Shown: piece by piece, positions 1 to 24,093 of the stretch
Layout of the letters: each line of letters starts with the position of its first letter
Numbering within the stretch: the stretch's first letter is position 1
IMG/VR virus record: IMGVR_UViG_3300043173_000393
Location: 1 to 25,036 of that record
Strand: one strand, 5' to 3'
Length of the DNA: 25,036 nt
Origin: a virus
Taxonomy: Duplodnaviria; Caudoviricetes
Program-made: the position numbers and the translations under genes
Notes under the pieces: model-generated
Database searches by the model: none
The model's input: the letters and a program-made list of their open reading frames with translations, nothing else
Told to the model about the DNA's origin: nothing

Positions 1-32
1 TTTGTTGAAGGGATAAGAAATTCAGTGCTCAT
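1..32 (-). CDS. Partial CDS (N-terminus MSTEFLIPST...), continues beyond the left edge; probably the next fibre-cluster gene
   Basis: ATG at 32-30 overlaps the TGA of the 387-aa gene (ATGA coupling); GAGGG lies ~8 nt upstream; the frame is open to the window edge. Confidence 0.5.
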   Translation of the reverse strand, partial: MSTEFLIPST

Positions 33-1192
33 GTGACAGCCCTCAACGCGAGATTAGTGAAGTAGTATCGCAGTGTTTTGATACCCGTTATTGTCGTTAT
101 ACCTGCCCAAAATGACATCAGGAATGTCGCCGCAGGTAGCTCCGTTGTGAACGTCGTGCTCGCCTCCACTACTTTGGTAGCGCTCAACAAGCTAACGGTG
201 ACTGATGTCCCACTTGTCGCATCGACAACCACATAGTGCGCTAACGTGTCAGCTACTACACCAGAGTCCACGAGTGTCTGTGTCGTACCATCATTGGCAA
301 CGAATTGGAAGTTGGTATCAGGTCGATCGCTTGAGTACACAACACCAACGCCTTCGGTGTTACCGTCCATGACGTTGTCGTCAGTTGCGATACCCGCTTC
401 TGGAAAGAGTCCTGCGAAGAAACGAACACTCGTTGTTCCGAGAAGCTTAAACTTCGTTACGAGCATGGGTTTCTGGTCGAGACGAATACCGTCTTCATCT
501 GCTGTGATGATTACGTCATTACCAGCTATTGCACTTGTATCTACGTCAACGGAGATTCCATCAGCATCAGCAACAAAAGAAGTGGCATTAGAAGCCACTA
601 CGACTTTCTTCCCAATCCCATCGCCGTCGATTTTGACCTTACTATCCATCTGCGCAGACACCATGCCCAGCTGGTTCGTTATATCGAATGAATGCTTGTG
701 TAATGCAGAGGCATCGCTCCCGTCAGTGAGTGTCTCTGCTTCTGCAGCACTAATGTCAGTGCCTCCGTCTGCGGCCACTGACTCAGAGAATGTCACACCG
801 TGGGGGTTACTCCCTACTGGACCACCGACGTGGGCCTGGATGTTGACGTTTGCAACTTCTGCACCGGCCTGTGCTGCTGTCACACTGTGAGGGTTATCAG
901 CAGCAAGGGAGTCGTGCCTTGCCTCAGTCAGATACTGCGCATGATCGTCATCACTGAGTCCAGTGAGCGCACCATGATCGTTATTGATACCAGGGACCAG
1001 TCCTGTCCATACTGGCGTGATTGCGGAGAGGTAGTACAGCGCACCAGTGTCTTCTTGGAACGCTAGCTTGTTAATGTCTACTGCAGTGTAGACCGTTGCA
1101 TCTGCGGCTCGCGCAGCTGCGTCTGCAAACACTTGGCGGAAGGGAGTATGTACTTCTACGCCAATTTGATTACTGTGTAAGCCTGTGCTCAT
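29..1192 (-). CDS. Putative tail/virion fibre protein with a His-motif shaft and C-terminal beta-sandwich (387 aa)
   Basis: TAATG coupling to the upstream gene. Motifs DHGALTGLSDDDHAQYL, NPHSVT/NPHGVT and LTDGSDASALHKH are typical of phage fibre shafts. The C-terminus is beta-rich and lectin-like (FFAGL...GVGVVYS...NFQFV...DSGV). Confidence 0.7.
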   Translation of the reverse strand: MSTGLHSNQIGVEVHTPFRQVFADAAARAADATVYTAVDINKLAFQEDTGALYYLSAITPVWTGLVPGINNDHGALTGLSDDDHAQYLTEARHDSLAADNPHSVTAAQAGAEVANVNIQAHVGGPVGSNPHGVTFSESVAADGGTDISAAEAETLTDGSDASALHKHSFDITNQLGMVSAQMDSKVKIDGDGIGKKVVVASNATSFVADADGISVDVDTSAIAGNDVIITADEDGIRLDQKPMLVTKFKLLGTTSVRFFAGLFPEAGIATDDNVMDGNTEGVGVVYSSDRPDTNFQFVANDGTTQTLVDSGVVADTLAHYVVVDATSGTSVTVSLLSATKVVEASTTFTTELPAATFLMSFWAGITTITGIKTLRYYFTNLALRAVT

Positions 1193-1491
1193 TACTCTGC
1201 CCTTTTTATGAGTGCATCGCCTGCGGAGTCATAGATCAGTCCACCATCAATAGTGAGTAGGCCGAATCCTAACCCAATAGCAGCAGAGCCACTCACTACC
1301 CAGTTCGCTGGGGTTGTTGCGGGTAGTGCGGTAAGAATGAAGCGCCTACCATCCGTATGAAAAAAGACAGAACCCACAGGCGCATTAAGAAATGCAACCC
1401 ATGGGTCCTGTGACCCGGCAGTGAGGCCCAGTGCATCACCGAGATTGATGCCATCATCTGAGACCTCCCAACCTCTGTCGAAATTACCCAT
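1192..1491 (-). CDS. Small virion/fibre-associated protein (99 aa)
   Basis: Starts 1 nt after the upstream stop and is TAATG-coupled downstream. The motif GSQDP...APVGSVFFHTDGRRF...W resembles the N-terminus of the adjacent 375-aa protein. Confidence 0.65.
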   Translation of the reverse strand: MGNFDRGWEVSDDGINLGDALGLTAGSQDPWVAFLNAPVGSVFFHTDGRRFILTALPATTPANWVVSGSAAIGLGFGLLTIDGGLIYDSAGDALIKRAE

Positions 1492-1492
1492 C

Positions 1493-2620
1493 TTACGTCA
1501 GGGCAACAGTCCTTACTGCGCTGGTACGCACCACATGGAAGTCGGTCGAGCCAGTAGCGGCTACGTCCAGGTCCATGGTCTGAGCACCCGCAGCACCCGT
1601 GAGGCTTACTGCAACAGAGAAGCCCGCGATGTTCCCGATCTTGAGCTTCGTGTGAACCGAGAAATCAACCGTCGTCGCATCTGCACCAGCGGTTATCCCG
1701 TCATGTGCAGCTGTGATGATAGCCGATCGCATGTTTGCACCGTCGCGAGCAATGACATGCCATTCCGCGTAGATATAGTCATCTACGAGCAGAGTGTCAG
1801 GCGTTGCAGCGGTCGTTGCGAGTGCAGTGGTCTTGAAGTTAGCGTCAGCGAGAGCGACATCCAACTTCTCGACGGCGACGTTCGTGTCGTCATTCGCACC
1901 GATGAAGTTACCAGCTGAGATTTCAGCACCGATCTGTGCATCCAACTTACCGATTGCAACTTCCAGGTTGTCACCGTTAGTGACGTGGTTGTTGCTGGAG
2001 TAAGTCGGCGTTTCGGAGCCAACACCAGTCTTACCGATGAAGGTTCGAATGAAGCCAAGCTCGTCCAGATCGGACTGGTTGCTCAGTACCCAAACTGTAC
2101 CGTTGTAGGTGAAGGTCTTGCCTGCGTCAGTACCGTCCACGATGAAGAGCGTGTCACCCGCAGTTGCGAGATTGGCGCTTTCCGTAAAGGTCCACGCACC
2201 AGTACTACCTGACACGATGTAGATGTTCTCGTTGCCAGAGGTTAGATCAGTGAAGAGCAGACGGTCAGCGACGTCAATCGTGACGCCATCGACAAGGTCA
2301 GCGACGTTCGCAGCAGTCACCGCAGCCGCGATGTCCGCATACGTGGTGTTGTCACGAACGAGCGCAGGCTCACGCCATGAGGTACCCGTCGTTACGTCAT
2401 CAATCGTAGCGAGCTTTACCCACTTATCGGAGCCAGAGCCTGCTGTGTCCTTGATGTAGAGATCACCGTTGGTGTAGTCCTGTGCCAAAGAACTGACGGA
2501 TACGACATCCGCATCACCACCACCAGGAGGTCCTGCTGTAGGGATAATGTAAGTCCGACGTACATCACCACCTTCTGAGATGGCAATACCCCGGTCTAGT
2601 TCAAAGAAATCAAGAGCCAT
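1493..2620 (-). CDS. Putative tail fibre / virion structural protein (375 aa)
   Basis: GGAGG SD upstream. Contains the common phage-fibre segment SWREPALV...VDGVTIDVADRLLF...NENIYIV...GAWT, short coiled segments (LEVAIGKLD, VAVEKLD) and a C-terminal beta domain. Confidence 0.75.
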   Translation of the reverse strand: MALDFFELDRGIAISEGGDVRRTYIIPTAGPPGGGDADVVSVSSLAQDYTNGDLYIKDTAGSGSDKWVKLATIDDVTTGTSWREPALVRDNTTYADIAAAVTAANVADLVDGVTIDVADRLLFTDLTSGNENIYIVSGSTGAWTFTESANLATAGDTLFIVDGTDAGKTFTYNGTVWVLSNQSDLDELGFIRTFIGKTGVGSETPTYSSNNHVTNGDNLEVAIGKLDAQIGAEISAGNFIGANDDTNVAVEKLDVALADANFKTTALATTAATPDTLLVDDYIYAEWHVIARDGANMRSAIITAAHDGITAGADATTVDFSVHTKLKIGNIAGFSVAVSLTGAAGAQTMDLDVAATGSTDFHVVRTSAVRTVALT

Positions 2621-2636
2621 AGTATGTGGCCTCCGC

Positions 2637-3239
2637 TTAAGCTATCAGTGTGGCGAACCGCAAGACATTCACGTCGAGCGACTCAGTGTGGTTATTCGTA
2701 ACTCTCAGTCTCATCTCTCCACTCAGTATGTCCACGTCCACAGTGAAAATACGGTCGCCCATCCTACCATAAACAGCATGGGTCACAGCACTCACACGGT
2801 GGACCGCTATCACATTCACCCTCGCATAGACCGCTGCCCCCGTGGCAGTGTCTGTTGCAATGACAACCCAGTCAACTCCCTGGTCTGCACCTAGACTAAC
2901 ACTATCAGCGGTCACAGTCCCGGCAGCGTTCACCGAAGTGTTGGTCTGGAGTGCCCCTCCAGCCGGTCCAGCCGGTCCCTGCTCCCCTATTGAGACCACC
3001 TGAGTGATGTCCTCGTTCACAATGACGGTGACATTTTCCTCAGTAATCGGGACCTGAGAGACCTCAGTTAGCCGCACAAACGTCGTATTCTGTTGAACTA
3101 CAACGACCTCCTCATTGCATGTGATCTTGACAAAGGTATTACCTTCGTCAATCGCGACAAACCCTTGCGCCGGGGGAGTGATCTGGACGACCGGATTGGT
3201 CTCGTTGACCACCACTACATTGTCATTGCAGTCGCTCAT
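2637..3239 (-). CDS. Putative fibre protein: Val-rich beta N-terminus, short collagen-like GEQGPAGPAG, C-terminal beta domain (200 aa)
   Basis: ATGA overlap with the upstream gene; Gly-X-Y triplets; C-terminal domain similar to that of the 375-aa protein. Confidence 0.7.
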   Translation of the reverse strand: MSDCNDNVVVVNETNPVVQITPPAQGFVAIDEGNTFVKITCNEEVVVVQQNTTFVRLTEVSQVPITEENVTVIVNEDITQVVSIGEQGPAGPAGGALQTNTSVNAAGTVTADSVSLGADQGVDWVVIATDTATGAAVYARVNVIAVHRVSAVTHAVYGRMGDRIFTVDVDILSGEMRLRVTNNHTESLDVNVLRFATLIA

Positions 3240-3628
3240 GCTGTGACGTTCAAGCTGAATTTGATGCTGCCTTCAATCAGGCGGATGACCTTACCACCGG
3301 GCTCTATGATTTCGAAGTCGTAGAACGCACCACCGTCGAAGTCTGCTTCGGTCAGTGCTGCTGTAGCCGTGTCATCCACGTCAAGCTGGAACTGTCCGAG
3401 CGCTTCGCTCAAGATGATTATCCCGCTCCCGATAGTCAGGTCGAGAAATACCGGTCCTGTCTTGCTACCGGTCCTGGCTTTCATCCGAGCATCGTAGCCT
3501 GTGATATCAATCGGAGGCCCAGGCGTATCCGGATCATTGTCCGGATCAGGCGCAGGGTTCAGATACTGAATGATCGGATCGAAGGTTGCGCCCTGTTCGA
3601 TATTGAATGTGTGTTTTCCTGCTGCCAT
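3236..3628 (-). CDS. Ig-like (BppU-N-like) fibre adaptor/virion protein (~130 aa)
   Basis: Motifs IEQGATF...PIDITGYDARM...YDFEI...RLIEG match a widespread phage family that precedes collagen-containing fibre genes. Start 3628 (MAAGK) is preferred to 3646 because it has GAGG ~8 nt upstream and follows the upstream stop by 1 nt. Confidence 0.7.
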   Translation of the reverse strand: MAAGKHTFNIEQGATFDPIIQYLNPAPDPDNDPDTPGPPIDITGYDARMKARTGSKTGPVFLDLTIGSGIIILSEALGQFQLDVDDTATAALTEADFDGGAFYDFEIIEPGGKVIRLIEGSIKFSLNVTA

Positions 3629-3629
3629 T

Positions 3630-3863
3630 TTATCGGCCTCGCTCATCGTTGATCATGTTGCGCATCACCATCAGTTGACTATCATGGCAACGCGCTTTGT
3701 CTTGCATGTACTCAATCTGCCACTCAGTCAGCGGTCTGTCTGATTCGAAGAACCAAGTCCTGTCTTCGCGGCCTATCACTTTTGCCTCGCCTTCTTTCTT
3801 AGGCCAAGGCATCTCTAGATACGCCGCGAGCCCCAAGTCAGTCGTTGTAAATTTATGACTCAT
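3630..3863 (-). CDS. Small hypothetical protein, DUF5659-like (77 aa)
   Basis: The N-terminal FTTTDLGLAAYL...WFFE pattern is recalled from DUF5659-type proteins. It overlaps the end of the 2150-aa gene by 11 nt and fills the gap to the next gene. Confidence 0.55.
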   Translation of the reverse strand: MSHKFTTTDLGLAAYLEMPWPKKEGEAKVIGREDRTWFFESDRPLTEWQIEYMQDKARCHDSQLMVMRNMINDERGR

Positions 3864-12065: not shown

Positions 12066-13889
12066 CTATGAAACGTCTTCTTGCACCACAAGGGTATTCG
12101 CCGCGCTCTGTGCAGCCTGAATCAGGTTCTCAAAGTTTGTTACACCGCGAGAAGTTGCATCGAGTCGAACCTGTGTCTCAGATTGAAGACGACTCAGCTC
12201 AACCTTAGTAATCTCTATATCACGGTCAGCGTTATTACTAACCTGTTGCAGGAACTGAGCTGTGGCGCTATCTGCATTTGCATAGAAAGCAGCCCAGCCG
12301 TCAATCAGTGTGCGGAAGCTGTTGATATCGGAGTCATACACTTTCGTCAGAGAACCGACACGCTCTATCTCGCGGGACAGGTTAGCCGTGAACTGCCTGA
12401 TCTCACCGTCGTACCTCTGCAGGTCGAGCTTCCCTCGTTCGATATCCGTCTGGACATTGAGGTTCTCGATCTGTGTCTTCGTCGCAGCGGCTTGCACTTC
12501 AGCGGTATACGTCTGCACTTCAGTCTGGAAGACTCCGAGCTTCGTTACCTCGCCTTTGATCTGTGCTTCGAACACCTGGATCTTAGCAACCTCTGCGCCG
12601 ATGAGCGAGCTGTATGCGCTGACTTCTTCACCGAACTGCTGGATCTTCAAGCGCTGGATCTCAGCTTCGATAGACGCAGCCCGCATCTCAGTCTCGAAGA
12701 TATTCACGACAGCCTGGACTGCATTGATCTGAGCTGTGAACAGTGCAACGTCCTGCTGGTTCAACTCTGAGATCAAGCGCTGTGCTTCGATCTCAGATCG
12801 AAAGATCTCGATCTTCGCCAGCTCTGCACGCACGAGAGTCTCATGGGATTGGACCTGGGCTCCGTATGCAGCGATACGAGTATTGAACTGCCGTACCTGT
12901 GCATCGAACGAAGCGATTGAGAACTCCGAAACAAACACTGCAGCTTTGAGCGCACGTTCCTGTCTGAATCCAAACAGAGTGATGAGCAAGCTTTCAAGAG
13001 TTGTCCCATTCGAGAGAATGAATTCTCGAGTCTTGCGGAAGAGATCAGACCTGACGGTGAAGACTTCGCGCTCGCCTGCAGAGATTCTCGCCTGCGTATC
13101 TTGCTGCGCTGATCTCAGGGCATCGTCAAGAGATCCAGACGGCAAGTGGTGTCCTCGACTAGCGAAGTTCCGCAGGACTTGGGACTCGTTTGTACGGCCA
13201 CCACGAGCTTCACGATCTCTAAGTCTACCCACCAACTGCTCTTCGTCGCGTGGGTCAATGCCAAAGCCGCCATTAAGTAGATCATCCAAGTGCTGGCTTT
13301 TGATTTCATCAAGTAATTCATCTGAGAACTCAGGCTCCGAGTAGTTGAAAGGTGTGGGGGCGAACAACAACGTGTCAGCCGGGAACTGTGCAGAGAACGT
13401 CGGCAGAGCAATCGACTGCGGCGTCGGGATCACAATCTGTGCGAGCACAGGTGTCGGCGGTAGCGTGAAGTCAGGTGCCGTAGGAATCGCAACAGGCGCA
13501 ACCTGTGGCGCAGTTGGCGATGCCGGGAACGATATAATCGGCGCTGCCGGTATGAGGATCTGAGGCGAGTCACCCGGCGCATCAGGTAGAACTGGGATCG
13601 TAGCATCGCGGATATCCAGTACAGGTGGCGCAGCGACGTTGCCTGGGCTCACGAAGGAAAGACCATCCGGACGCTCCGGTTGGTTGTTGATCGCATCTGC
13701 TAGACCCGCTCCCGTAAGAATCGAAAACGTACGACTACCGGGCGGATCGAGATCGAACGCCTGTGTTACAAATGTCTGCAGATCTACGATGAACGATTCT
13801 GACTGCGCAAGCAAATGATCGATTCGCGCTTGCGCGTTAGCAATCTGCCCTGCTGCAGTATTCGGATCGCCTGCTGGTACATGTGGCAT
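12066..13889 (-). CDS. Pro-rich and long coiled-coil virion protein, putative ejection/tail-channel component (607 aa)
   Basis: TAATG-coupled to the 1477-aa gene; Pro-rich region at ~aa 70-180; heptad-patterned helical C-terminal half. Confidence 0.6.
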   Translation of the reverse strand: MPHVPAGDPNTAAGQIANAQARIDHLLAQSESFIVDLQTFVTQAFDLDPPGSRTFSILTGAGLADAINNQPERPDGLSFVSPGNVAAPPVLDIRDATIPVLPDAPGDSPQILIPAAPIISFPASPTAPQVAPVAIPTAPDFTLPPTPVLAQIVIPTPQSIALPTFSAQFPADTLLFAPTPFNYSEPEFSDELLDEIKSQHLDDLLNGGFGIDPRDEEQLVGRLRDREARGGRTNESQVLRNFASRGHHLPSGSLDDALRSAQQDTQARISAGEREVFTVRSDLFRKTREFILSNGTTLESLLITLFGFRQERALKAAVFVSEFSIASFDAQVRQFNTRIAAYGAQVQSHETLVRAELAKIEIFRSEIEAQRLISELNQQDVALFTAQINAVQAVVNIFETEMRAASIEAEIQRLKIQQFGEEVSAYSSLIGAEVAKIQVFEAQIKGEVTKLGVFQTEVQTYTAEVQAAATKTQIENLNVQTDIERGKLDLQRYDGEIRQFTANLSREIERVGSLTKVYDSDINSFRTLIDGWAAFYANADSATAQFLQQVSNNADRDIEITKVELSRLQSETQVRLDATSRGVTNFENLIQAAQSAANTLVVQEDVS

Positions 13890-16800
13890 TAGTTCTTCCT
13901 CGTCTTACGAGACAGGATGCGCAAGAGCAATCCCATCTTGTCTATCTTGAATTCTGACCCACCCTGGTTCTTTATTCCGAGCTGATAGGTGCGAGACCTA
14001 AGACCTCGTGCGCCTTTGAAACGAGCGTGCTTAACTCCTGTGGAGTTTGAGATCCGTTCAACTGGATACTCACGCACACGGGTCTGCCCATCAGGGAAGA
14101 GACGGAGAACGAGATTGCCTCCTGTGTACGCCATATACAGCCCATCAGCTTCTTTAAGATGCGCATCATCTCGATCCTCGATACCTGATAAGAACTCCGC
14201 ATCGATGTTCGTGCCATCGTCGTCGTCTCCTGCGAGCAGGAAGATCCCAGCGTCAGTGACTCCGTACGGCTGGTCATTGAATGAGACCAGATTTATGAAA
14301 TCGAAGTTCAAATAGTTGGTGGTCTCGAAGCTCTCTGTGTTCATTGCCCATACCGTTGAAGCGAGTACTGCGGTATTGACGATGGTCCCGTTTACCCGCA
14401 GGAAGGGGAGTATAACCAATCCTTCGCCCAGTGAGCCAGCGGCCAGAGGAGCCTGGGCCGGGTCTGTGCGGAAGGAGGGCAGCGTGAGCGTACCCGAGAT
14501 CAGGTTGTCTCCGTCCAGCAGACTGAGCACTTGCAGCCCTGGCAGGTTGATCGAGCCTGTAATGACCGAGCCTGTGATGATGGTACCCGTGACCTGGAGC
14601 GCACGGGGGGAGACCGAGCCGGTCGATAGGTTCGGGTTTAATATCGAGCCGGTGACTTGGAGGAACGGCAGCGTAACCTGACTAACGAGAACGGGGCCGT
14701 TACATATGATGCCGTTTACGGTGAGCGTCGGCAGGGAGACCTCATTCGTTTCATTATTGATCAGACCGTTGATCTGCAACTGCGGCATGCGCGGGTTGCC
14801 CTGGTACGCAGCCGTTGCAACAAGCGTACCTGTGACCCCGAGCAACGGTATCGTGAGATTTGCGACACCCGCGTTGCCGCGTACAATCGTCCCGTTGTGT
14901 GTCATTATCGGGAGCGTGAGCGTCCCTACAGCAGTCGCTCCAGCAAGGATGATCCCGTCAACTGTCAGAGCCGGGAGAGTGACTGTCCCCCCGAGACCAT
15001 TCGCATTGGTCTGACCAGTCGCGGAGATCGCCATGGTCATCGGCATCAAGCCGTCACCGCGATGGATATCGTTCGATCCCGTGGCAACAATCGCCATGGT
15101 CATAGCAGGTACGGCATCGCCATGCTTCGCAGGATTCGATCCCGTGGCAGCAATCGCCATAGTCATTGGCATCAAGCCATCGCCATGCTTCGCAGGATTC
15201 GAACCCGTGGCGACAATTGCCATGGTCATAGCAGGTACGGCATTGCCGTGCTTCGTATCATTCGATCCCGTTGCAGCAATCGCCATGGTCATCGCTGGTA
15301 CGCCAACGCCGGTATGCAAATTATTTTGTCCAATCGCAGCAATCGTCATGGTCATAGCAGGTACGCCAACACCATGGTGGACAGCGTTGTCTCCCACTGC
15401 AGCAATCGCCATGGTCATTGGTAACGCACCAACACCATGGTGAACTGAATTCAATCCCACTGCGGTAATCGCCATGGTCATCGGCACCAAGCCAGCGCCA
15501 TGATGTGCGGTATGTCCAGTCGCAGCAATCGCCATGGTCATCGGCATTAAGCCGTCACCGCGATGGATATTGTTCAATCCCACTGCAGCAATCGCCATGG
15601 TCATCGGCATCAAGCCAGCACCAGTATGCAAAACAGCTACGGGAAGGCCAGAGAACCCGGATGGAGCTGCTTGATTAAATTCTGAGGTTTGCGCCCTCAG
15701 AATCGTAGTCATGATGTGATCTTCTTTTACCTGAGCACCGAAGACCAGATCTTCCCCTGCGTCTGCCGTCGTTGCAGACTCACCAGTCCCCGCAGCTGGA
15801 TCTCCACCACCCTCCCACGTACCGTTGAGGCCAACCCACACCTTCGCGGGACTGACGGTCGTATCGATGGCGAACATGACGTAGTCGCCAACAACTGATA
15901 GGTAGTTTAGGGTAGCTGTGATGGCGATGGCCGAGCCATCGTTCCTGACGTTACCTTCTTGGAACGTGCTATTTTGATCGTCGTATTGGAGGATGACACC
16001 ATCCAGACCAGACAGAATGCTCGAAGTAACAGCGGAGTTGTCCGATGTTTGCGGAACAAAGCCAGCATAGCGTTGTTGTAAAGCTGGTCCTGGGTCTGTA
16101 AGTAGCTCTAGCTCACAGTAGACCTTCGCGCCGCCTCCGCTGTTCCCAGGGATCGTAGTACCAGTCTTCGTCCACCGGCCTGTTGTTGATGCTTGTGCAG
16201 GCCAAACACCTGAAGCAGTTCGGTTATCACCAAATACTGCCGCAGCTAAATGACTGTATGGGCCAGCCGTACTGAAGTCACCGTCGCTTGATTGCCAACG
16301 TCTCCAACCCGGATCTGTAGCTGACCACCCTGCGTAGCGTGTGTCTGTTTCGAGCGTCGTCCATCCCGAAGGAATCGCGATTCGTGTCTCAGGACCAGGG
16401 AGCAGTACATAACTTGAATCATGCGCACCCCCTCCGTTAGTCTGGAACACGCCATAGAGAGGAGCGCCGAATGTCAAGCCAGAGAAAGCTGCGTTCGTAA
16501 CAGTACCTGCGGCAAGTTCTGCGTCTGTCGCACCGTTTTGCCAAACGCCATTCTTCCCGAACCAGATCGCGCCAAGGTCGAAATCAACAGCGACAGAGAC
16601 AATATCGTCGTCAGTTTGTGTAGTACCGTACGCGCTCTTGATTGAGTTCGTAACTTTGTTCGCATCGTTCTCAAATGCCCATGAGACGAGAGAATTACCA
16701 GGGGAGACACTTGAGGGTGCGGGTGCTTCTGTTACACCAATACGCGCATCCTGTTGGCGTTCATCTACGAATACTTCGAAAATAATCTTCTGACCATCAC

Positions 16801-18322
16801 TGATCGTAGGCTTGATACGTTCTACTGGTGCGGTGGTTGTATCAGCACGAGCGACTAATCCATCCTGGGAATATTTTACATCGTTGAAGCTTGGATCCCA
16901 CATCGCCCGAGCACCCGGATCGATGTGAACCTCATCATCCATACCCGAGTCACCGAACTGAGTCGGTGGCCCTTCTGTAGATTGCGAAGGTCTGGTTGTA
17001 GCGATGTCGACGTCAAAAGCATTCGGACCTAAGTCACGATAACCGTTATGATCAAGCGCAATGTAGAAGTGCAGATCGGTGCGTTCAAGTAAGAGATCTG
17101 GTTTGTGTTGAATCTCTGTAATCTCAGCGAGTGTCAGCACGCCTTTGACACCAGCCACATGCGCTATCTTGCCGTTAAACTGAGAAGAACCAGCGGGGAG
17201 GCGATCACCAATATGGATATCGTCTCCGCTGTCTAGCATCCCGGTGCCACCGATAGTATCTGTTGCTATCTCAACACCATCTACGATCAGCTTGATGCCG
17301 TCTGTTGCACCGAGGTCAATGACGCCAGCCATTGCATGCCATGTACCAGACGCATCAGCGAGACCGACGCCGATCAGGTCCCAACTCCCAAATCCGGAAC
17401 CTGAACTACGACCAACGAAACGCGGAGCGTATGGAGTCCCCGAGCTGTTTTCCGCAATTAGAGCGAAGGCAGTCAGTGAAAGTGTTGAGCCAACGAGCCA
17501 AGCATCAATGTTACCGACGTCATCGTTGTTCCAACAAAATACTGTGTACTCATTGAGAGTACTGACAGGATCTGCAGAAACGTCGAAGGTCAGTCGATCA
17601 GTTGAGCCGTCGAAGTCATGTGATGCAGTGGCACCGTCTAGGAGAGTGGGTGCGTTTACTTCCGATCCTGTTTCGTTGGTTAATACATTCGCCCAAGTAA
17701 CTGCGTTGGCATGATCACCATAGTCGATCTTGTCATCGTAGCCGCGAAGGTGACTGATATTCGAAAAGCCAGCGCCGACGTAAGCTTCTGGATTCCATCG
17801 CAGCGCACGTAACTCATCAATTGTCAGTGCGGTCTGGAACGCCATGGCGTTCGAATAATTACCACTAGCATGGAAACCGCTGCCGAGTCCGTTGAAGAAA
17901 CCGACATTGAAGTCGTGGTTGTTGTTTTGTACTAAGCCACTAGATGATGCGCCATCTGGAAAGATGACGTCGTTGTCGATCATAAAGAAAGCATTGTCTG
18001 GATCAGCAGAGTCGTAGACTAGCGCGAGAAAGTGCCAATCTGTCTGACCGCGAGCAGTTGTTGTTTTGGTATCAGTGTATGCGCTAGAGCCTCCTACGGC
18101 TGAGATGTTGGCGACGAACGTATCAGCAGGCGAAGCGGTCTCCACCTTGAAGGCCATACCCGCTTGGGTAGTATTGTCGCGGAGATTAAGGATGTGGTCG
18201 TCACTGCCACCATGACCACCAGAAGATTTGTACCAAACACAAATAGTGGCGGCGGCTACACCTTCAAACCGATCTGCGCCAGTAAACGCAGCCCATGTTG
18301 GTGTGCCGACAAGGATACTCAT
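13889..18322 (-). CDS. Multidomain tail/receptor-binding protein: 2x LamG-like, 2x SPRY-like, ~20 x 21-aa repeats, nozzle-like C-terminal domain (1477 aa)
   Basis: LamG-like motifs DWHFLALVYD...ALTIDEL and TWHAMAGV...KLIVDGV...FNGKIAHV...LTLAEI; SPRY-like motifs DIVSVAVDFDLGAIWFGKNGVWQ and GDYVMFAID...KVWVGLNGTW; repeats visible in both protein and DNA. Confidence 0.8.
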   Translation of the reverse strand: MSILVGTPTWAAFTGADRFEGVAAATICVWYKSSGGHGGSDDHILNLRDNTTQAGMAFKVETASPADTFVANISAVGGSSAYTDTKTTTARGQTDWHFLALVYDSADPDNAFFMIDNDVIFPDGASSSGLVQNNNHDFNVGFFNGLGSGFHASGNYSNAMAFQTALTIDELRALRWNPEAYVGAGFSNISHLRGYDDKIDYGDHANAVTWANVLTNETGSEVNAPTLLDGATASHDFDGSTDRLTFDVSADPVSTLNEYTVFCWNNDDVGNIDAWLVGSTLSLTAFALIAENSSGTPYAPRFVGRSSGSGFGSWDLIGVGLADASGTWHAMAGVIDLGATDGIKLIVDGVEIATDTIGGTGMLDSGDDIHIGDRLPAGSSQFNGKIAHVAGVKGVLTLAEITEIQHKPDLLLERTDLHFYIALDHNGYRDLGPNAFDVDIATTRPSQSTEGPPTQFGDSGMDDEVHIDPGARAMWDPSFNDVKYSQDGLVARADTTTAPVERIKPTISDGQKIIFEVFVDERQQDARIGVTEAPAPSSVSPGNSLVSWAFENDANKVTNSIKSAYGTTQTDDDIVSVAVDFDLGAIWFGKNGVWQNGATDAELAAGTVTNAAFSGLTFGAPLYGVFQTNGGGAHDSSYVLLPGPETRIAIPSGWTTLETDTRYAGWSATDPGWRRWQSSDGDFSTAGPYSHLAAAVFGDNRTASGVWPAQASTTGRWTKTGTTIPGNSGGGAKVYCELELLTDPGPALQQRYAGFVPQTSDNSAVTSSILSGLDGVILQYDDQNSTFQEGNVRNDGSAIAITATLNYLSVVGDYVMFAIDTTVSPAKVWVGLNGTWEGGGDPAAGTGESATTADAGEDLVFGAQVKEDHIMTTILRAQTSEFNQAAPSGFSGLPVAVLHTGAGLMPMTMAIAAVGLNNIHRGDGLMPMTMAIAATGHTAHHGAGLVPMTMAITAVGLNSVHHGVGALPMTMAIAAVGDNAVHHGVGVPAMTMTIAAIGQNNLHTGVGVPAMTMAIAATGSNDTKHGNAVPAMTMAIVATGSNPAKHGDGLMPMTMAIAATGSNPAKHGDAVPAMTMAIVATGSNDIHRGDGLMPMTMAISATGQTNANGLGGTVTLPALTVDGIILAGATAVGTLTLPIMTHNGTIVRGNAGVANLTIPLLGVTGTLVATAAYQGNPRMPQLQINGLINNETNEVSLPTLTVNGIICNGPVLVSQVTLPFLQVTGSILNPNLSTGSVSPRALQVTGTIITGSVITGSINLPGLQVLSLLDGDNLISGTLTLPSFRTDPAQAPLAAGSLGEGLVILPFLRVNGTIVNTAVLASTVWAMNTESFETTNYLNFDFINLVSFNDQPYGVTDAGIFLLAGDDDDGTNIDAEFLSGIEDRDDAHLKEADGLYMAYTGGNLVLRLFPDGQTRVREYPVERISNSTGVKHARFKGARGLRSRTYQLGIKNQGGSEFKIDKMGLLLRILSRKTRKN
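14372..14995 (-). repeat. Degenerate protein-level repeat: ~10 units of ~21 aa, consensus GxxxLPxLxVxGxI
   Basis: Units include GTVTLPALTVDGII, GTLTLPIMTHNGTI, ANLTIPLLGVTGTL, SQVTLPFLQVTGSI and GLVILPFLRVNGTI; little DNA-level identity is visible. Confidence 0.8.
15005..15631 (-). repeat. Coding tandem repeat: 10 units of 63 nt (one of 60 nt), consensus x(H/K)xGxG(L/V)(MP/PA)MTMAIAAxGxN
   Basis: The core atcgccatggtcat (with variants) recurs every 63/60 nt; 627 nt = 9x63 + 60; in frame within the 1477-aa CDS (aa 898-1106). Confidence 0.95.
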
Positions 18323-18335
18323 CTAGAGCAAACCT

Positions 18336-18827
18336 CTAAGTCGGAATTTCGATAGCGAAGAAATCCCAGTACATATCCCCAACAAGGTCAGTCGTAGTTG
18401 CAACGAAGCGTGAAATGCGGAAGCCTACAAGTTGTTCCGCTGTCCAGCCAAGAGCAGCAACAGTCTCAGTCCATTCGATAATCGAGATATCGTCCTGCGT
18501 AGCATCGATTGGTTGATCGTCTATGTCTTCATCGACATAGGCGACGTCCCAACTACCGCTCTCACCAAAATTGTGATGACCTATACGCAGAGCTACGTTG
18601 CGAGACGCAGCTACAGTCTTGGACCACACGTAAGCGCGGAACGTGACGACACCCGCCCCGTTGATAGAAGAAGGCACGACGAATTTGCCATTGCGATACT
18701 CTTCCGTGGTATCGTCAAAAGCCGCCGTGCGCTTCGTACGGTTACTTCCTACAACCGTTTCAACTGGGGCAAAGTTGGACTCGACCGCCTGCAAAGCTGC
18801 CACCGTAAAAGGCAGAAGTATTGGCAT
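18336..18827 (-). CDS. Beta-sandwich virion/fibre-associated protein (163 aa)
   Basis: AAGGAGG SD. The pattern AAFDDTTEEY...FVVP...VTFRAYVW...GFRISR...DLVGD resembles a domain often seen at phage fibre C-termini. Confidence 0.65.
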   Translation of the reverse strand: MPILLPFTVAALQAVESNFAPVETVVGSNRTKRTAAFDDTTEEYRNGKFVVPSSINGAGVVTFRAYVWSKTVAASRNVALRIGHHNFGESGSWDVAYVDEDIDDQPIDATQDDISIIEWTETVAALGWTAEQLVGFRISRFVATTTDLVGDMYWDFFAIEIPT

Positions 18828-18841
18828 GCGCTAAATCCTCC

Positions 18842-19279
18842 TTATGCGTTAATCGAGACCGAGAACGTATCGATGACGATTGGATCTGCCGCAACGAAGA
18901 CAGGGTTGACGAACTCCAGATCGAAATCACCAGAGTCGATACCAGCCGAGCCATCCATGCGGACAGCAACCGCACTCACACCAGTTGTATGAGCGTTGTC
19001 ATACAACCGGAACCAAGTACACGTACCGGGGTTGTCAGCCGAGGTATCTTCCCACGTACCCGCTTTCGCGACTGCGCCACCTGACGGAGCTGCGAACGGA
19101 GATACGGGAAGAACGACACCGGCGAGAAGCGTTCCCGCTCCTTCCGTTGCATCAGCAGTCGCGGGCTGAGCGCCATCGAAGATATCGAGGAACCCAAGAG
19201 TGAACAGGGTATCCATATCATTCACGCCGCCCAGCAAAGCGTTTCGAAGACCAGTTGAGAATTTGGGGTTGAAAGACAT
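18842..19279 (-). CDS. Small tail-associated beta protein, paralog B (145 aa)
   Basis: AGGAGG SD; clearly similar to the adjacent 154-aa protein (GLRN, TLGFLxI, GxQPA, WFR, DGS). Confidence 0.8.
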   Translation of the reverse strand: MSFNPKFSTGLRNALLGGVNDMDTLFTLGFLDIFDGAQPATADATEGAGTLLAGVVLPVSPFAAPSGGAVAKAGTWEDTSADNPGTCTWFRLYDNAHTTGVSAVAVRMDGSAGIDSGDFDLEFVNPVFVAADPIVIDTFSVSINA

Positions 19280-19294
19280 TTCTACTTCCTCCTA

Positions 19295-19759
19295 TTAGGC
19301 AGCGGGCTGGACGATGTTGAAATCGGTCACAGTCTGCGTTGCACCTGAAACAACGGACACGTTGCTCATGTTCAGATCGGCACCACTGACAGCAATCGAG
19401 CCGTCGAGCGCTTTCACTCCAGAACCGCCTGCGTCAGCACTTGCTTCCGTAGTCGCTTTGTTTGTGTCCAGTTCATGAAAACGGAACCAGCCAGCCGTGC
19501 CTGTTGCACCAGCTGTCCCGTTCCACACTTCTGCCGCAGCTTTGGGCAACGTACCCGCTACAACAATCGCATCGAACGTAAGTCCGATTGCACCACCGTC
19601 GACAGCAATCGTCGCGAGACGAACTCCGGTCGCGGCGTCATTTGCGCTTGCGGGTTGAGACCCGCTGTAGATCATGAGAAACCCGAGAGTAAGCGCAGCC
19701 TCCACCGAGCTAACCTGCAGGATGTGATTCCGCAGTCCGTCCGTCAATCTTAGTGCCAT
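19295..19759 (-). CDS. Small tail-associated beta protein, paralog A (154 aa)
   Basis: GGAGG SD. MALRLTDGLRN...IYSGSQPASAN...GTAGWFR...LDGSI...GADLNM is a widespread phage structural family. Confidence 0.8.
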   Translation of the reverse strand: MALRLTDGLRNHILQVSSVEAALTLGFLMIYSGSQPASANDAATGVRLATIAVDGGAIGLTFDAIVVAGTLPKAAAEVWNGTAGATGTAGWFRFHELDTNKATTEASADAGGSGVKALDGSIAVSGADLNMSNVSVVSGATQTVTDFNIVQPAA

Positions 19760-19763
19760 TGTC

Positions 19764-20978
19764 TTAGCCTCCGTTTACCACTGCGATGTAGTGGTTCTGC
19801 TTGTTCGCTCGTCTGTAGAGCGCTGTACCATCCACTGAATTGGCTGAGAAGTCTACCACACGCTCGTGGACGTTTCTCAAGGTTCCGCCTGGGAGCCCTA
19901 TCACGATGCCCGCCTGAGTAGCCCATACCGGGATCCTCTCAGTGGCCTCGCCGGTACCAACGACTGAGCCGTTGATATGGACCTTCGTGCCTGGGATCGC
20001 TCCGTAATCTGCAGCTTCGGTCAGGGACAGGTTCATCATGTCGCTCCCGGTCAGCCAATAATGCTTTGTCTCCGTCCCGATGTAAAACCCATCTCTGAGA
20101 CCACCAATGATGTGGATCCGTTCCCCGAAGGGCATGTACCCTTTGGCGAGGTCTCTGAGTTCATAATCGAACTCATTTGTCCACTCTAAGTTGTTATTTC
20201 GGGCGAAGAGTAAACTAGCGCGGAACCAGTCAATCTCGTGCCATGCCTCCGGGGCGGACATCAATTGACGGTCGAGCACTATGCTTGTACGAGGTCGTCC
20301 ATTACGATAAGAGAAGCCCGTCTCCCCTGCAAAAATTTCATCTGCGAGATATAGGGTGTCGCCGTTAGCTTCAGTGATCCAGAAGCGCTTCGTGAGCCCC
20401 GCAGAGAATGTGAAGAGAAAGCCTTCATTTTCTCCAACGTCAACGGTTCTTGGTAGAGGGCTTCCGGACTCGCGGCCATCTGACTCAACATTTGTGAAAA
20501 CATACGAGTAGCGGCCTTCTCCAAGGTTTCCTGTAGTTGGCGCACCTTCCAAGCGGGAAGGGACGGGTACTCCGAAATCACGAAGGTTACCGTTTGGCTC
20601 CACGACTCCAGTTTCAAATCCGTTGCTCCAGTAGACTTGGTTTCCAATTCTGTAGGCACTGATCTTATCTCCTATCGTTAAGCCGGTGCGCAGCGTCTCA
20701 ACGTCAGTCGCAGAGCGAAAGCGTTTGAGCGACGTGCCCTCCTGAAAAAGAAAGAGCTGCTTGTCAGCCCATGCACTGTGTATCGTTCCTGCAGGAACGT
20801 ACGAAGTGTCAACGCGACCAGGGCGGCGCTCGATGCTATTCTTGCGCGTCAGGTCGACGTTGTTAGCGAGGACCATTCCATCGAAGCCAACCTCAAAGTC
20901 TTCGTCTTGCGTACGAAGTCCCTTGATCTCAAGCTTCGCATCTCTCGGTCTGTTCGCTGTGGTGTTCTTGAGCGCCAT
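19764..20978 (-). CDS. Putative tail nozzle/stabilisation protein, beta-propeller-like (404 aa)
   Basis: Follows the adaptor gene with TAATG coupling. The N-terminal LANNVDLT...IERRPG motif is typical of P22 gp10/T7 gp12-like nozzles; beta-rich. Confidence 0.6.
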   Translation of the reverse strand: MALKNTTANRPRDAKLEIKGLRTQDEDFEVGFDGMVLANNVDLTRKNSIERRPGRVDTSYVPAGTIHSAWADKQLFLFQEGTSLKRFRSATDVETLRTGLTIGDKISAYRIGNQVYWSNGFETGVVEPNGNLRDFGVPVPSRLEGAPTTGNLGEGRYSYVFTNVESDGRESGSPLPRTVDVGENEGFLFTFSAGLTKRFWITEANGDTLYLADEIFAGETGFSYRNGRPRTSIVLDRQLMSAPEAWHEIDWFRASLLFARNNNLEWTNEFDYELRDLAKGYMPFGERIHIIGGLRDGFYIGTETKHYWLTGSDMMNLSLTEAADYGAIPGTKVHINGSVVGTGEATERIPVWATQAGIVIGLPGGTLRNVHERVVDFSANSVDGTALYRRANKQNHYIAVVNGG

Positions 20979-21721
20979 TAGAAGGGTATGCCTCCGTAGC
21001 GCGTACTACGAGCGCGGAAGCGCGTACGCTTGATCTCACGACGTCGCTCATCAGCTGCACTGTCAAACAGACGTCCGAACTTGGCAGACAGCTCTGGATC
21101 GTAGGTATCCGCGTCCTGCTTCAAGAAAGCAAGAGAGCGCATGTAGTCCATGATGATTAGCTGATCTTCGAGTTCTGTGACGTCGAGCGTAGCGCTATCA
21201 CACGTCACAGTGTTAAGCGGAAGATGTTCAACGATCAACTCAACGGTGTCGTCTTGTGCAGGGATCGGGACAATGCGTACGAAGTTCTCTGTGAAGTTCG
21301 GAGCAAGGATACGTGCGTTTCCAATCTTATCCTGCCAGTTTCCTACGAACACAGCGCCATAGTCACGCGTGAAGAACCCCTCGTTGAGTTCCTCGAAAGG
21401 CATGATCTCTAGTGGATCTGAATTCGAGTTTGAAGTGTCTCGCATCCTTGCGTTCAAGATACGAATGATCTTGGTACTGATCGGTAAAAAGCCACTCGCA
21501 CCCGAAGCAGTGAAGGCCAGTGTGGTCAGATCTGTTATATCGACCGCAGGGGAACCCTTCCGCAGAAAATGTGTTCGTCGTACGAACTTTCTCTGCGCCA
21601 CTTCCATGTATCCGAAGACGTCATCATCAGACCAGAGGTAGTCTTCACCTTGACTACCACCGTTTATGTCATCGACTTCTCTGCGGAACCTGTCTTTAAG
21701 ATCTTCGGGTGTGAGTGACAT
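20978..21721 (-). CDS. Head-tail adaptor (247 aa)
   Basis: Position after the capsid genes; helical N-terminus (LKDRFRREVDD...YLWSDDDVFGYM), beta middle and helical C-terminus (DYMRSLAFLKQDAD), as in podoviral adaptors. Confidence 0.7.
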   Translation of the reverse strand: MSLTPEDLKDRFRREVDDINGGSQGEDYLWSDDDVFGYMEVAQRKFVRRTHFLRKGSPAVDITDLTTLAFTASGASGFLPISTKIIRILNARMRDTSNSNSDPLEIMPFEELNEGFFTRDYGAVFVGNWQDKIGNARILAPNFTENFVRIVPIPAQDDTVELIVEHLPLNTVTCDSATLDVTELEDQLIIMDYMRSLAFLKQDADTYDPELSAKFGRLFDSAADERRREIKRTRFRARSTRYGGIPF

Positions 21722-22500: not shown

Positions 22501-22962
22501 TTAGCCGGTCTCAGGCGCATTCTTCGATCCGTAATCCGCCACGTTCAGGCCCTGGTTCTCATGGGCTCGATCGTTGATGACGTACTCGACTCGAATGGTC
22601 GCCGCTCCCTGCGTGGAATCGGCCCCGACAAGAACGGGATCGACGTCGACCGTCTCTTCCCCTGTGGTCACTTTACCATCCAGAGTAAGAGCCGTTCGCC
22701 CGAGGCTTTTGAGATCGACAGGCGAAGACGTGTAACGATCAGGATCGTCTACGTCTCCGATATCAAGCACAGCGGTTGTGCCCTGATCCCATACCTCAGT
22801 CACGGTAATTGAGCCACCAACCACTTCCGCGCCCGCAGGAAGATCCAGAAGATCTTGAATCCCTGTACCGATTGCTTGCGCGACAGTGAGTCCATCAGCA
22901 AAGCCGATGTTCGCAGATGCCCAAAGGGAGTATTGCCGACCTTGGTCTTTCAGAATTTCCAT
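22501..22962 (-). CDS. Capsid cement/decoration protein, jelly-roll type (BPP-1 Bbp16-like) (153 aa)
   Basis: Directly after the MCP with a GGAGG SD; motif LPAGAEVVGGSITVTEVWD...LDIGD...RY...GAATIRVEYV. Confidence 0.7.
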   Translation of the reverse strand: MEILKDQGRQYSLWASANIGFADGLTVAQAIGTGIQDLLDLPAGAEVVGGSITVTEVWDQGTTAVLDIGDVDDPDRYTSSPVDLKSLGRTALTLDGKVTTGEETVDVDPVLVGADSTQGAATIRVEYVINDRAHENQGLNVADYGSKNAPETG

Positions 22963-22974
22963 GATCAGCCTCCG

Positions 22975-24093
22975 TTAGATTGCGTGATTGACGCGAAGAA
23001 CTGCGAAGTCTTCGTTGGTACCCGACGCGTGGCTTCGGAAGACAGGCTTCTTCATGCCGCACATTTTGCCCAACGAGATACCTTGCTCGTTCTCGTAGTC
23101 AAACCCTTTCTCCACCCAGTAGGGATCGCCAATGTCAGCGAAGCCGAGGGCTTGGGAACCGCAGAGCAGCGTGCTGGAACCTTCGACGTTTCCGCCAGAT
23201 CCGAACTTGCTACCACCCGCAGCGCCAAGGGTGTTGAACACATGGAAGAACTCGCGAATTGCGAGACCATCCACAAAGTACACGTCTGCATCGCGAAACA
23301 AGATGTTGCTTGTCGAACGAGGCATCGCGTTGCGCCATGCGGCGAGAAAGTCCGGATCCAACTTGAGGATCGCGATTGCATCGGGGTGCATGAACACGTT
23401 GTACATGACCTGCCCCGAGAAAGGACCTTCGCCCCGGATGGGCCGAATGAACTGAATTTTCGCAAACGCCTTCATCTTGACAAGCATGCGCCAAGACGGC
23501 ACGTCGGCAGCGACTACCGTAGCGGTATCGCCGGGGACGAGTGAGTCGGATGCGTCAACCCAGTTGCGATGACGAAGCGTAGTCGGAGCCGTGACGTCAG
23601 CCGCCCACTCCAGGAACGGCAGATCACTACCCGTTCGCGGGGAGCCGTCGTTCTTGAGAGTGAAGGAAACGCCAGTGAGCGCCAAGAACGCCATTTGGTC
23701 GAGTCGGTCAGCGAGCCAGTAGGCCAGTACGTCGCGAGAGTTCTCTCTGAACTCCACAACCGAACGCTGATCCGCAATGCGGCCTTCGTGTCGGTTGGCG
23801 TGACGCAGTTGGTCGACTTGGATGACCTGATCGAACGACTGGATCTCTTCCTCATTGCCTTCGAGGGTTCGATCTCCCGCAACACCATCACCTTCCAGGT
23901 CCTTGACCAGGGTAATGACAGCGCGTGCGCCTTTCTCGGTCTTCTTCAACTCGGAGATCCGCTGGATCATCGAGTTGGGACCGTCGCCTAAGAACTTGTT
24001 CAGAAAGGCAGCGTTACGGGCGTTCTTCCAGGTATCCTTGGCCCAAATCGTTTTCTGCTCGTCTGTGAGAGCAGCGAAATTGGTAAGAGCCAT
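22975..24093 (-). CDS. Major capsid protein (DUF4043 / N4-gp56-like family) (372 aa)
   Basis: Motifs MALTNF...W, GDGVAGDRTLEGNEE, QVDQLRHA, LAYWLADRLDQMAFLAL, LLCGSQAL and FDYENEQGIS; strong AGGAGG SD; lies between the scaffold and cement genes. Confidence 0.92.
   Translation of the reverse strand: MALTNFAALTDEQKTIWAKDTWKNARNAAFLNKFLGDGPNSMIQRISELKKTEKGARAVITLVKDLEGDGVAGDRTLEGNEEEIQSFDQVIQVDQLRHANRHEGRIADQRSVVEFRENSRDVLAYWLADRLDQMAFLALTGVSFTLKNDGSPRTGSDLPFLEWAADVTAPTTLRHRNWVDASDSLVPGDTATVVAADVPSWRMLVKMKAFAKIQFIRPIRGEGPFSGQVMYNVFMHPDAIAILKLDPDFLAAWRNAMPRSTSNILFRDADVYFVDGLAIREFFHVFNTLGAAGGSKFGSGGNVEGSSTLLCGSQALGFADIGDPYWVEKGFDYENEQGISLGKMCGMKKPVFRSHASGTNEDFAVLRVNHAI

Follow-up and report, generated by a model that had tools for sequence, protein, structure and literature searches.

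Results

Gene content of the locus

The window, the whole stretch of 25,036 nucleotides that was analysed, is a single 25-kb contig carrying a podophage structural module on its minus strand (Table 1). Nineteen proteins of the window were scanned with Pfam and PHROGs. The context obtained in this way is a capsid-adaptor-nozzle module, and the scan detected neither a chaperone nor an usher or pilin family. The only public run matched by the window is X1, a marine sediment metagenome, of which a contig is identical over 13800-19900; this run is possibly the source of the window and thus not independent of it.

The closest described system is podophage A1002 (Pseudomonas, Kochitakasuvirus; PDB 44NX, 26GP, 26FB), whose fibre module comprises gp39 (nozzle-rope), gp40 (fibre I), gp41 (fibre II) and gp42 (nozzle-base) (PMC13730344). 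According to the available text of that report, residues 243-468 of gp39 form an extended rope of 300 Å, which carries 11 dimers (beads) by beta-sheet augmentation, 7 of gp40 distally and 4 of gp41 proximally, so that 226 residues serve 11 dimers, one dimer per approximately 20.5 residues (PMC13730344). The C-terminal platform and partial propeller of gp39 complete gp42, the proximal bead is the product of the gene adjacent to that of the nozzle-base, and six fibres per virion, along an elongated tail tube, are seen by cryo-EM (PMC13730344). The window has a gp40-homologous bead, a gp39-like platform C-terminus and a separate upstream nozzle-base gene, along with two different beads and a docking period of 21 residues between head and platform.

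KPP25 was used as a second reference. Its 620-aa rope and its beads of 147 and 171 aa have the sizes of gp39, gp40 and gp41, and the rope has the same letters as gp39 wherever the PDB alignment displays them. The window and KPP25 are 56% identical in the capsid protein, 39% in the bead (the 154-aa protein against the 147-aa one) and 23% in the nozzle-base; these values refer to protein pairs only, and membership in Kochitakasuvirus is not claimed.

Downstream of the rope gene, genes of 607, 580 and 2150 aa follow in that order on the minus strand. The 607-aa protein (12066-13889, phrog_10969), located directly after the rope, gave, in a phmmer comparison within a set of 13 proteins, a weak match to the KPP25 protein with the size of a tail-tube protein (E 4e-5), and no match among PDB sequences. 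The gene at 22501-22962 likely encodes a cement protein (E 4e-6 to KPP25 gp17), and the one at 3236-3646 possibly a collar-type jelly-roll (E 0.007 to KPP25 gp88; phrog_1084). Three genes of 387, 375 and 200 aa, located at 29-3239, have no Pfam or PHROG match and probably encode further fibre parts; judged by eye, the two shorter ones have similar beta-rich C-terminal domains, with a brief collagen-like segment in the 200-aa protein. Each of the two bead genes, like the 163-aa gene, is preceded by a GGAGG ribosome-binding motif (18828-18845, 19280-19295, 19760-19775), which fits a high copy number of their products.

Table 1. Features of the structural module in the window, in minus-strand order.
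Feature	Position	Strand	Basis
Major capsid protein	22975-24093	-	PF13252
Adaptor	20978-21721	-	PF24175
Nozzle-base protein, 404 aa, A1002 gp42 homologue	19764..20978	-	phmmer 26fb_K, 398 aa, E 1.7e-10; phrog_8040 E 5e-40
Bead 1, 154 aa, gp40-like	19295..19759	-	44nx_B E 5.2e-24; phrog_3758
Bead 2, 145 aa, separate gp40-like clade	18842..19279	-	profile A2 to 44nx_B and 9rkv_A; phrog_3758
163-aa predicted jelly-roll protein (CBM-like fold)	18336..18827	-	AF2 pLDDT 64; VIA matches
Nozzle-rope protein, 1477 aa: 4 head domains, 10 class A, 10 class B, nozzle platform	13889..18322	-	ORF
Head domain 1, LamG-like (inferred)	17723..18322	-	46% identical to L165 domain matching PF13385 at E 7e-12
Head domain 2, LamG PF13385, aa 240-401	17120..17605	-	Pfam E 1.8e-11
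Head domain 3, SPRY PF00622, aa 513-625	16448..16786	-	Pfam E 1.1e-11; E 6.8e-10 in whole protein
Head domain 4, SPRY-like (inferred, boundaries approximate)	15638..16225	-	similarity to L246 head and head domain 3
Class A array, 10 x 21 aa, distal segment	15014..15628	-	regex, self-similarity, TRF
Class B array, 10 x ~21 aa, proximal segment	14381..14989	-	regex, self-similarity; in-register alignment to P0217
C-terminal partial propeller and platform domain	13889..14380	-	26gp_Q, phrog_26502

The nozzle-rope protein

The 1477-aa protein contains two classes of repeats of approximately 21 residues, as the original prediction had stated. Class A (aa 899-1103) comprises 10 units of the type HxGxG(L/V)xPxTMAIxAxG with a period of 21, starting at aa 900, 921, 941, 962, 983, 1004, 1025, 1046, 1067 and 1088 (spacing 20-21), which corresponds to nt 15625-15014. 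Class B (aa 1112-1314) comprises 10 units of the type GxxxLPxLxVxGxI, starting at aa 1112-1301 with a spacing of 18-24; nine of them were found by regular expression, and one, which has no proline, was placed by eye. The self-similarity at lag 21 reached 2.75 in the class A region (aa 899-1110) and 0.63 in the class B region (aa 1109-1322), far above the maxima of 200 shuffles (0.06 and -0.07, respectively), and the same scan revealed no period in the N- or C-terminal regions. TRF reported a period of 63 bp for class A only. The mean pairwise identity of the class A units is 0.73 at the nucleotide and 0.68 at the amino acid level, in comparison with 0.49 and 0.37 for class B. The 73% likeness of class A DNA, against 49% in class B, suggests that class A is younger or more homogenised.

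The N-terminal head comprises four domains, of which the first has no Pfam match of its own. The fourth has no Pfam match either and was recognised by its similarity to the L246 head (28% over 164 aa, E 4e-9) and to head domain 3 (34% over 53 aa, E 0.008). At the opposite end, rope residues 1315-1473 match residues 460-615 of 26gp_Q (E 5e-4 against PDB sequences) and phrog_26502 (E 3e-12); the 620-aa chain matched in this way is present in 26GP, 26LA and 44NX. It is this C-terminal domain, at E 5e-4, that provides the link between the rope and gp39, as a profile of the repeat region matched neither A1002 gp39 nor any other PDB sequence. By homology to gp39, the C-terminus would be a nozzle piece which anchors the rope, a part of the protein that the earlier description had overlooked. 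The placement of the LamG/SPRY head at the distal, N-terminal end agrees with the A1002 homologue.

The small bead proteins and the 163-aa protein

The 154- and 145-aa proteins are 31% identical (E 1e-9) and both belong to phrog_3758. They are indeed paralogous, as predicted, but they do not lie directly upstream of the long gene, since the 163-aa gene (18336..18827) sits between. The profile of the 145-aa protein (A2) matched 44nx_B (E 2.3e-21) and 9rkv_A (E 2.1e-6). Its AF2 model (pLDDT 86) was most similar to 9rkv_A (VIA: Z 12.6, rmsd 2.0, 118 aligned residues); this chain belongs to 9RKV, the tail-fibre entry of phage 7-7-1, and is presumably the garland protein, a homodimer. The model also matched GP4 fibre I (8jou_a; Z 8.1, rmsd 3.2, 117 aligned) and the Sf14 and Bas63 neck entries. 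In a quick tree, ten proteins of the 145-aa type formed one clade (SH-aLRT 87), whose sister group is a 135-aa family, whereas the 154-aa protein lies far away from it; the two beads are thus an old pair. A comparison with the KPP25 proteins revealed no gp41 relative.

The 163-aa protein was considered as a third bead and rejected, as its model is a jelly-roll, it has no similarity to gp40 or gp41, and its gene is missing from other two-class loci (L085, L013, L060, L072). The best VIA matches of the model are jelly-rolls and CBMs (Z 9-10), with no bead protein among the best 50 listed, and its profile matched no PDB sequence. The gene has the same position in L165. The model is of modest confidence. 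Neither repeat class requires the protein, which may be placed at the head or serve as decoration.

Association of repeat class with bead subfamily

The relation between repeats and beads can be followed in KPP25, whose rope carries 7 proline motifs (aa 250-370) followed by 4 acidic motifs (aa 392-452), with patterns chosen by eye. These 7 and 4 motifs equal in number the 7 and 4 dimers observed by cryo-EM in A1002.

A first survey covered 65 non-redundant loci in which the platform gene was complete and a gp40-like gene was present. The class A profile was built from the ten class A units of the window only, and its threshold was derived from shuffled ropes. At least three clustered class A hits were found in 7 of the 8 loci with the 145-aa clade and in 1 of the 57 without it (Fisher 9e-8, uncorrected for kinship). 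Thus, class A tracks the 145-aa clade among relatives, as expected if each repeat class recruits its own paralogue. Three of the 8 loci were fetched after the profile had been built, the score cut-offs for the clade were set after the scores had been seen, and two pairs of loci (L013/L060 and L245/L246) are closely related. The one exception with class A hits and no 145-aa clade (L082) has, by eye, units of the proline type, and the one miss (L244) combines a 145-aa-clade paralogue with a single class A profile hit, two class A-like units being visible by eye. The 145-aa clade has a single origin, and its co-inheritance with class A could therefore be a single event. In L008, L012, L015 and L025, only a bead of the 154/gp40 type was detected, and their ropes have proline arrays and no class A.

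In a second survey, loci were fetched by the nozzle-base or platform domain, so that there was no selection by bead. It yielded 98 platform genes in 107 loci. Of these genes, 70 were kept; the 28 excluded ones comprised 7 that were already known from the first survey, 11 duplicates, 5 with a short upstream part and 5 open ones. An array of at least four proline motifs within 200 residues was present in 22 of the 70 loci, and all 22 had a gp40-like bead. Among the 48 loci without such an array, 14 had a gp40-like bead and 34 did not (tally read from the table), so that the array occurred in none of the 34 bead-less loci (Fisher 5e-9, uncorrected for kinship). The pattern misses variants in L311, L320 and L361. 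Repeats retained without the small-protein family, which would speak against their interaction, were thus not encountered among the 22 proline-type arrays. In six loci with a stand-alone platform gene no bead was detected. Neither class A nor the 145-aa clade was found in any of these 70 independently fetched loci.

The corresponding relation for gp41 is less sharply defined. Five ropes accompanied by gp41 only have, by eye, acidic and proline-poor units. The test with an acidic-class profile, trained on one locus, failed (at least three hits in 1 of 9 loci with gp41 and 0 of 35 without, p 0.2). In a post hoc test, the last 80 residues contained no proline motif in 8 of 10 gp41 loci and in 6 of 35 others (one of the 6 being an empty segment), again uncorrected for kinship. 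The class B profile of the window gave no hits on the KPP25 rope and is too narrow for distant ropes.

Variation among relatives

The rope of P0217 is 66% identical to that of the window in class B, in register, and 90% in the platform, and it has fewer class A units (5 profile hits) and a different head. Both LamG domains of the window are shared with L165, and SPRY is found in L246. The number of class A profile hits varies from 1 to 10 across loci, and the closest ones have 9 of class B. The stable class B and platform, the variable class A and the changed heads fit a proximal block that is fixed, a distal one that can expand and a tip that can be exchanged.

Several further arrangements were observed. 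At 4746-7319 of L060/L088, the rope begins with a fused bead domain of the 145-aa clade, from which the last ~14 residues are missing. This arrangement is a candidate for either a real fusion or an assembly chimera; in the related L013/L087, bead and rope are separate genes. Phage Rollin and a spring-water phage (L005 9093-12455; L003 6252-12806) each have three bead types, gp41-like, of a third family and gp40-like, and their ropes have, by eye, three repeat classes. In L072 (9001-12493), L245 (8535-11064) and L246 (8351-10998), the proximal repeats are of the LGxLxA type, without proline, and the proximal beads group together in a separate clade (support 100); possibly, these are another cognate pair. 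The distal bead of L072 has an inserted domain. The platform-matching gene of L371 (9059-10450) resembles, by eye, an unsplit nozzle without a rope, with no bead gene detected, and is a candidate for the state before the nozzle was split. Finally, the rope of L017 (6815-8500) has a globular domain between its proline repeats, with the platform as a separate gene; the GDCED motif of this domain is, we presume, reminiscent of transglutaminase-like enzymes.

Discussion

The gene order, the homology to gp39, gp40 and gp42 and the repeats of the long protein make a rope-and-bead architecture of this fibre very likely. By analogy with A1002, the C-terminus of the 1477-aa rope would lock into the nozzle-base and complete the nozzle, and the beta-sheet of each bead dimer would be completed by one repeat of 21 residues. 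About ten dimers of the 154-aa protein would then be placed on the proximal class B and about ten of the 145-aa protein on the distal class A, with six such ropes per virion. The number of repeats would set the fibre length, which, scaled from 300 Å for 11 dimers, would amount to ~55 nm. The LamG/SPRY head would be located at the tip, where it probably binds the host surface. The idea of a long chain which acts as a template and adds beta-strands to small subunits is thereby retained from the original prediction. Its expectation of a single subunit per repeat gives way to a probable dimer, as in A1002, and the ~10 copies of each paralogue per chain would become ~20, because A1002 has one dimer per site (PMC13730344, available text). 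We assign a probability of about 0.75 to the reading that this is a chain-like podophage rope fibre, anchored by its C-terminus, with one dimer per repeat and with repeat classes that sort the two beads in this way.

The addition of this locus to what is described for A1002 is the sorting, namely that the repeat type likely specifies which bead binds. The likely assignment, as judged from the sequences, is of the 154-aa protein to class B and the 145-aa protein to class A. It rests on co-occurrence. A fibre of two segments with one paralogue each, as had been predicted, fits the A1002 homologues as far as they are described in the available text (PMC13730344) and the co-occurrence in relatives.

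The most serious alternative is a rope on which beads are not sorted by sequence, so that either bead, or a heterodimer, would occupy any repeat, and class A would be a young expansion of one unit. The hydrophobic-Pro-x-hydrophobic core common to both window classes, the gp40-like nature of both beads, the homogeneity of class A at the DNA level with its variable copy number, and a possible joint origin of class A and the 145-aa clade are all compatible with it. However, the A1002 beads are described as forming clean blocks of 7 and 4 (PMC13730344), which match the motif switch of the rope. Moreover, class A remains distinct and tied to the 145-aa clade in L072, L245 and L246 despite different capsid genes and proximal repeats, and neither of the two occurs alone in the 70 independent loci, both being absent from all of them. 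An unsorted rope is therefore regarded as improbable.

Sorted beads in the reverse arrangement, with the 154-aa protein on class A and the 145-aa protein on class B, would agree with the closer relation of the 154-aa protein to gp40, which is described as the distal bead of A1002 (PMC13730344). This arrangement is nevertheless very unlikely, since loci with the 154/gp40 type as their only detected bead (e.g. L008, L012, L015, L025) have proline arrays and no class A, and since the 154-aa gene adjoins the nozzle-base gene, the position reported for the proximal-bead gene in A1002 (PMC13730344). For the garland protein of phage 7-7-1, the presumed identity of the closest structural match to the 145-aa model, no rope is named in the available text (PMC12796354). 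Repeats which fold on their own into a beta-helix or trimeric shaft, with the small proteins as a separate garland or whisker, would suit this match but are regarded as highly improbable, because the homologous A1002 region is an extended 300-Å rope (PMC13730344), each of the 22 proline arrays from loci fetched without selection by bead is accompanied by a bead gene, and the six loci with a stand-alone platform have no detected bead.

Returning to the sorted rope, with the 154-aa protein on class B and the 145-aa protein on class A, a more general rule can be proposed, which on balance we favour. Rope fibres may use an address code in which each bead subfamily has a cognate strand of 20-21 residues, so that the order, number and identity of beads could be read from the rope and reprogrammed by the duplication of repeats. 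The window would then represent an orthogonal pair within one bead family; its proximal block would be conserved, its distal block able to expand (~2 to 10 units among relatives) and its head open to swapping. The A1002 authors speculate about a transition between the two dimer types, and the cause of the sorting is unstated in the available text (PMC13730344). The openly searchable literature, a scope outside which the primary papers on GP4 and VP1 fall, contained no published repeat-to-bead code. As the repeats of the window are plain and nearly perfect, the question of bead sorting can be addressed with short peptides together with the two small proteins. Were the code true, fibre length and composition would become predictable for many uncultured phages, and the rope would serve as a genetically encoded template on which proteins are arrayed in order.

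Comparison with known fibres

In chaperone-usher pili, an incomplete beta-sandwich is completed by an outside strand, which is known as donor-strand complementation. The likeness to these pili that had been proposed holds for the addition of a strand, as in A1002; the pilus itself is an analogy only, as in the window a single continuous chain would donate all strands, and would donate them to dimers. The fibre is thus no chaperone-usher pilus. No pilin occurred among the listed fold matches of the 145-aa model, the top ones being phage bead proteins. The neck fibre of A-1(L), a chain of beads, was also considered and rejected, as its beads are trimers and no rope is described in the available text (PMC10966104).

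Closer are the fibres in which dimers are wrapped on a rope. In the available description, the whiskers of Bas63 are dimers strung like beads along a rope, by which their incomplete sandwiches are completed, and the five dimers of GP4 sit on a separate rope (PMC12609058). GP4 fibre I (gp80 dimers, PDB 8JOU), VP1 gp11 and the Bas63 and Sf14 collar-whiskers (9MT4, 9C39) share with the window the bead fold and, as far as they are described, probably the wrapping of dimers on a rope, but they have one bead type and 2-5 dimers, and their rope is separate or part of the collar, not of the nozzle.

The most similar system is A1002, with which the window shares a homologous nozzle-base, rope C-terminus and gp40, the gene order nozzle-base, bead, bead, rope and, according to the available text, ~21 residues per site, an N-terminal head and two bead genes. 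The window differs in its ~20 sites, compared with the 11 described, in the gp40-like nature of both beads, where A1002 pairs gp40 with gp41, in a head of four LamG/SPRY-type domains instead of one Ig-like domain, and in the additional gene for a predicted jelly-roll of 163 aa. In the window, the repeats can be plainly seen in the sequence, whereas the word 'repeat' is absent from the main text on A1002 (PMC13730344). Summarizing, the design of this fibre has already been solved in A1002 and is not new; what the window likely adds is a rope in which the repeats indicate which bead they bind.
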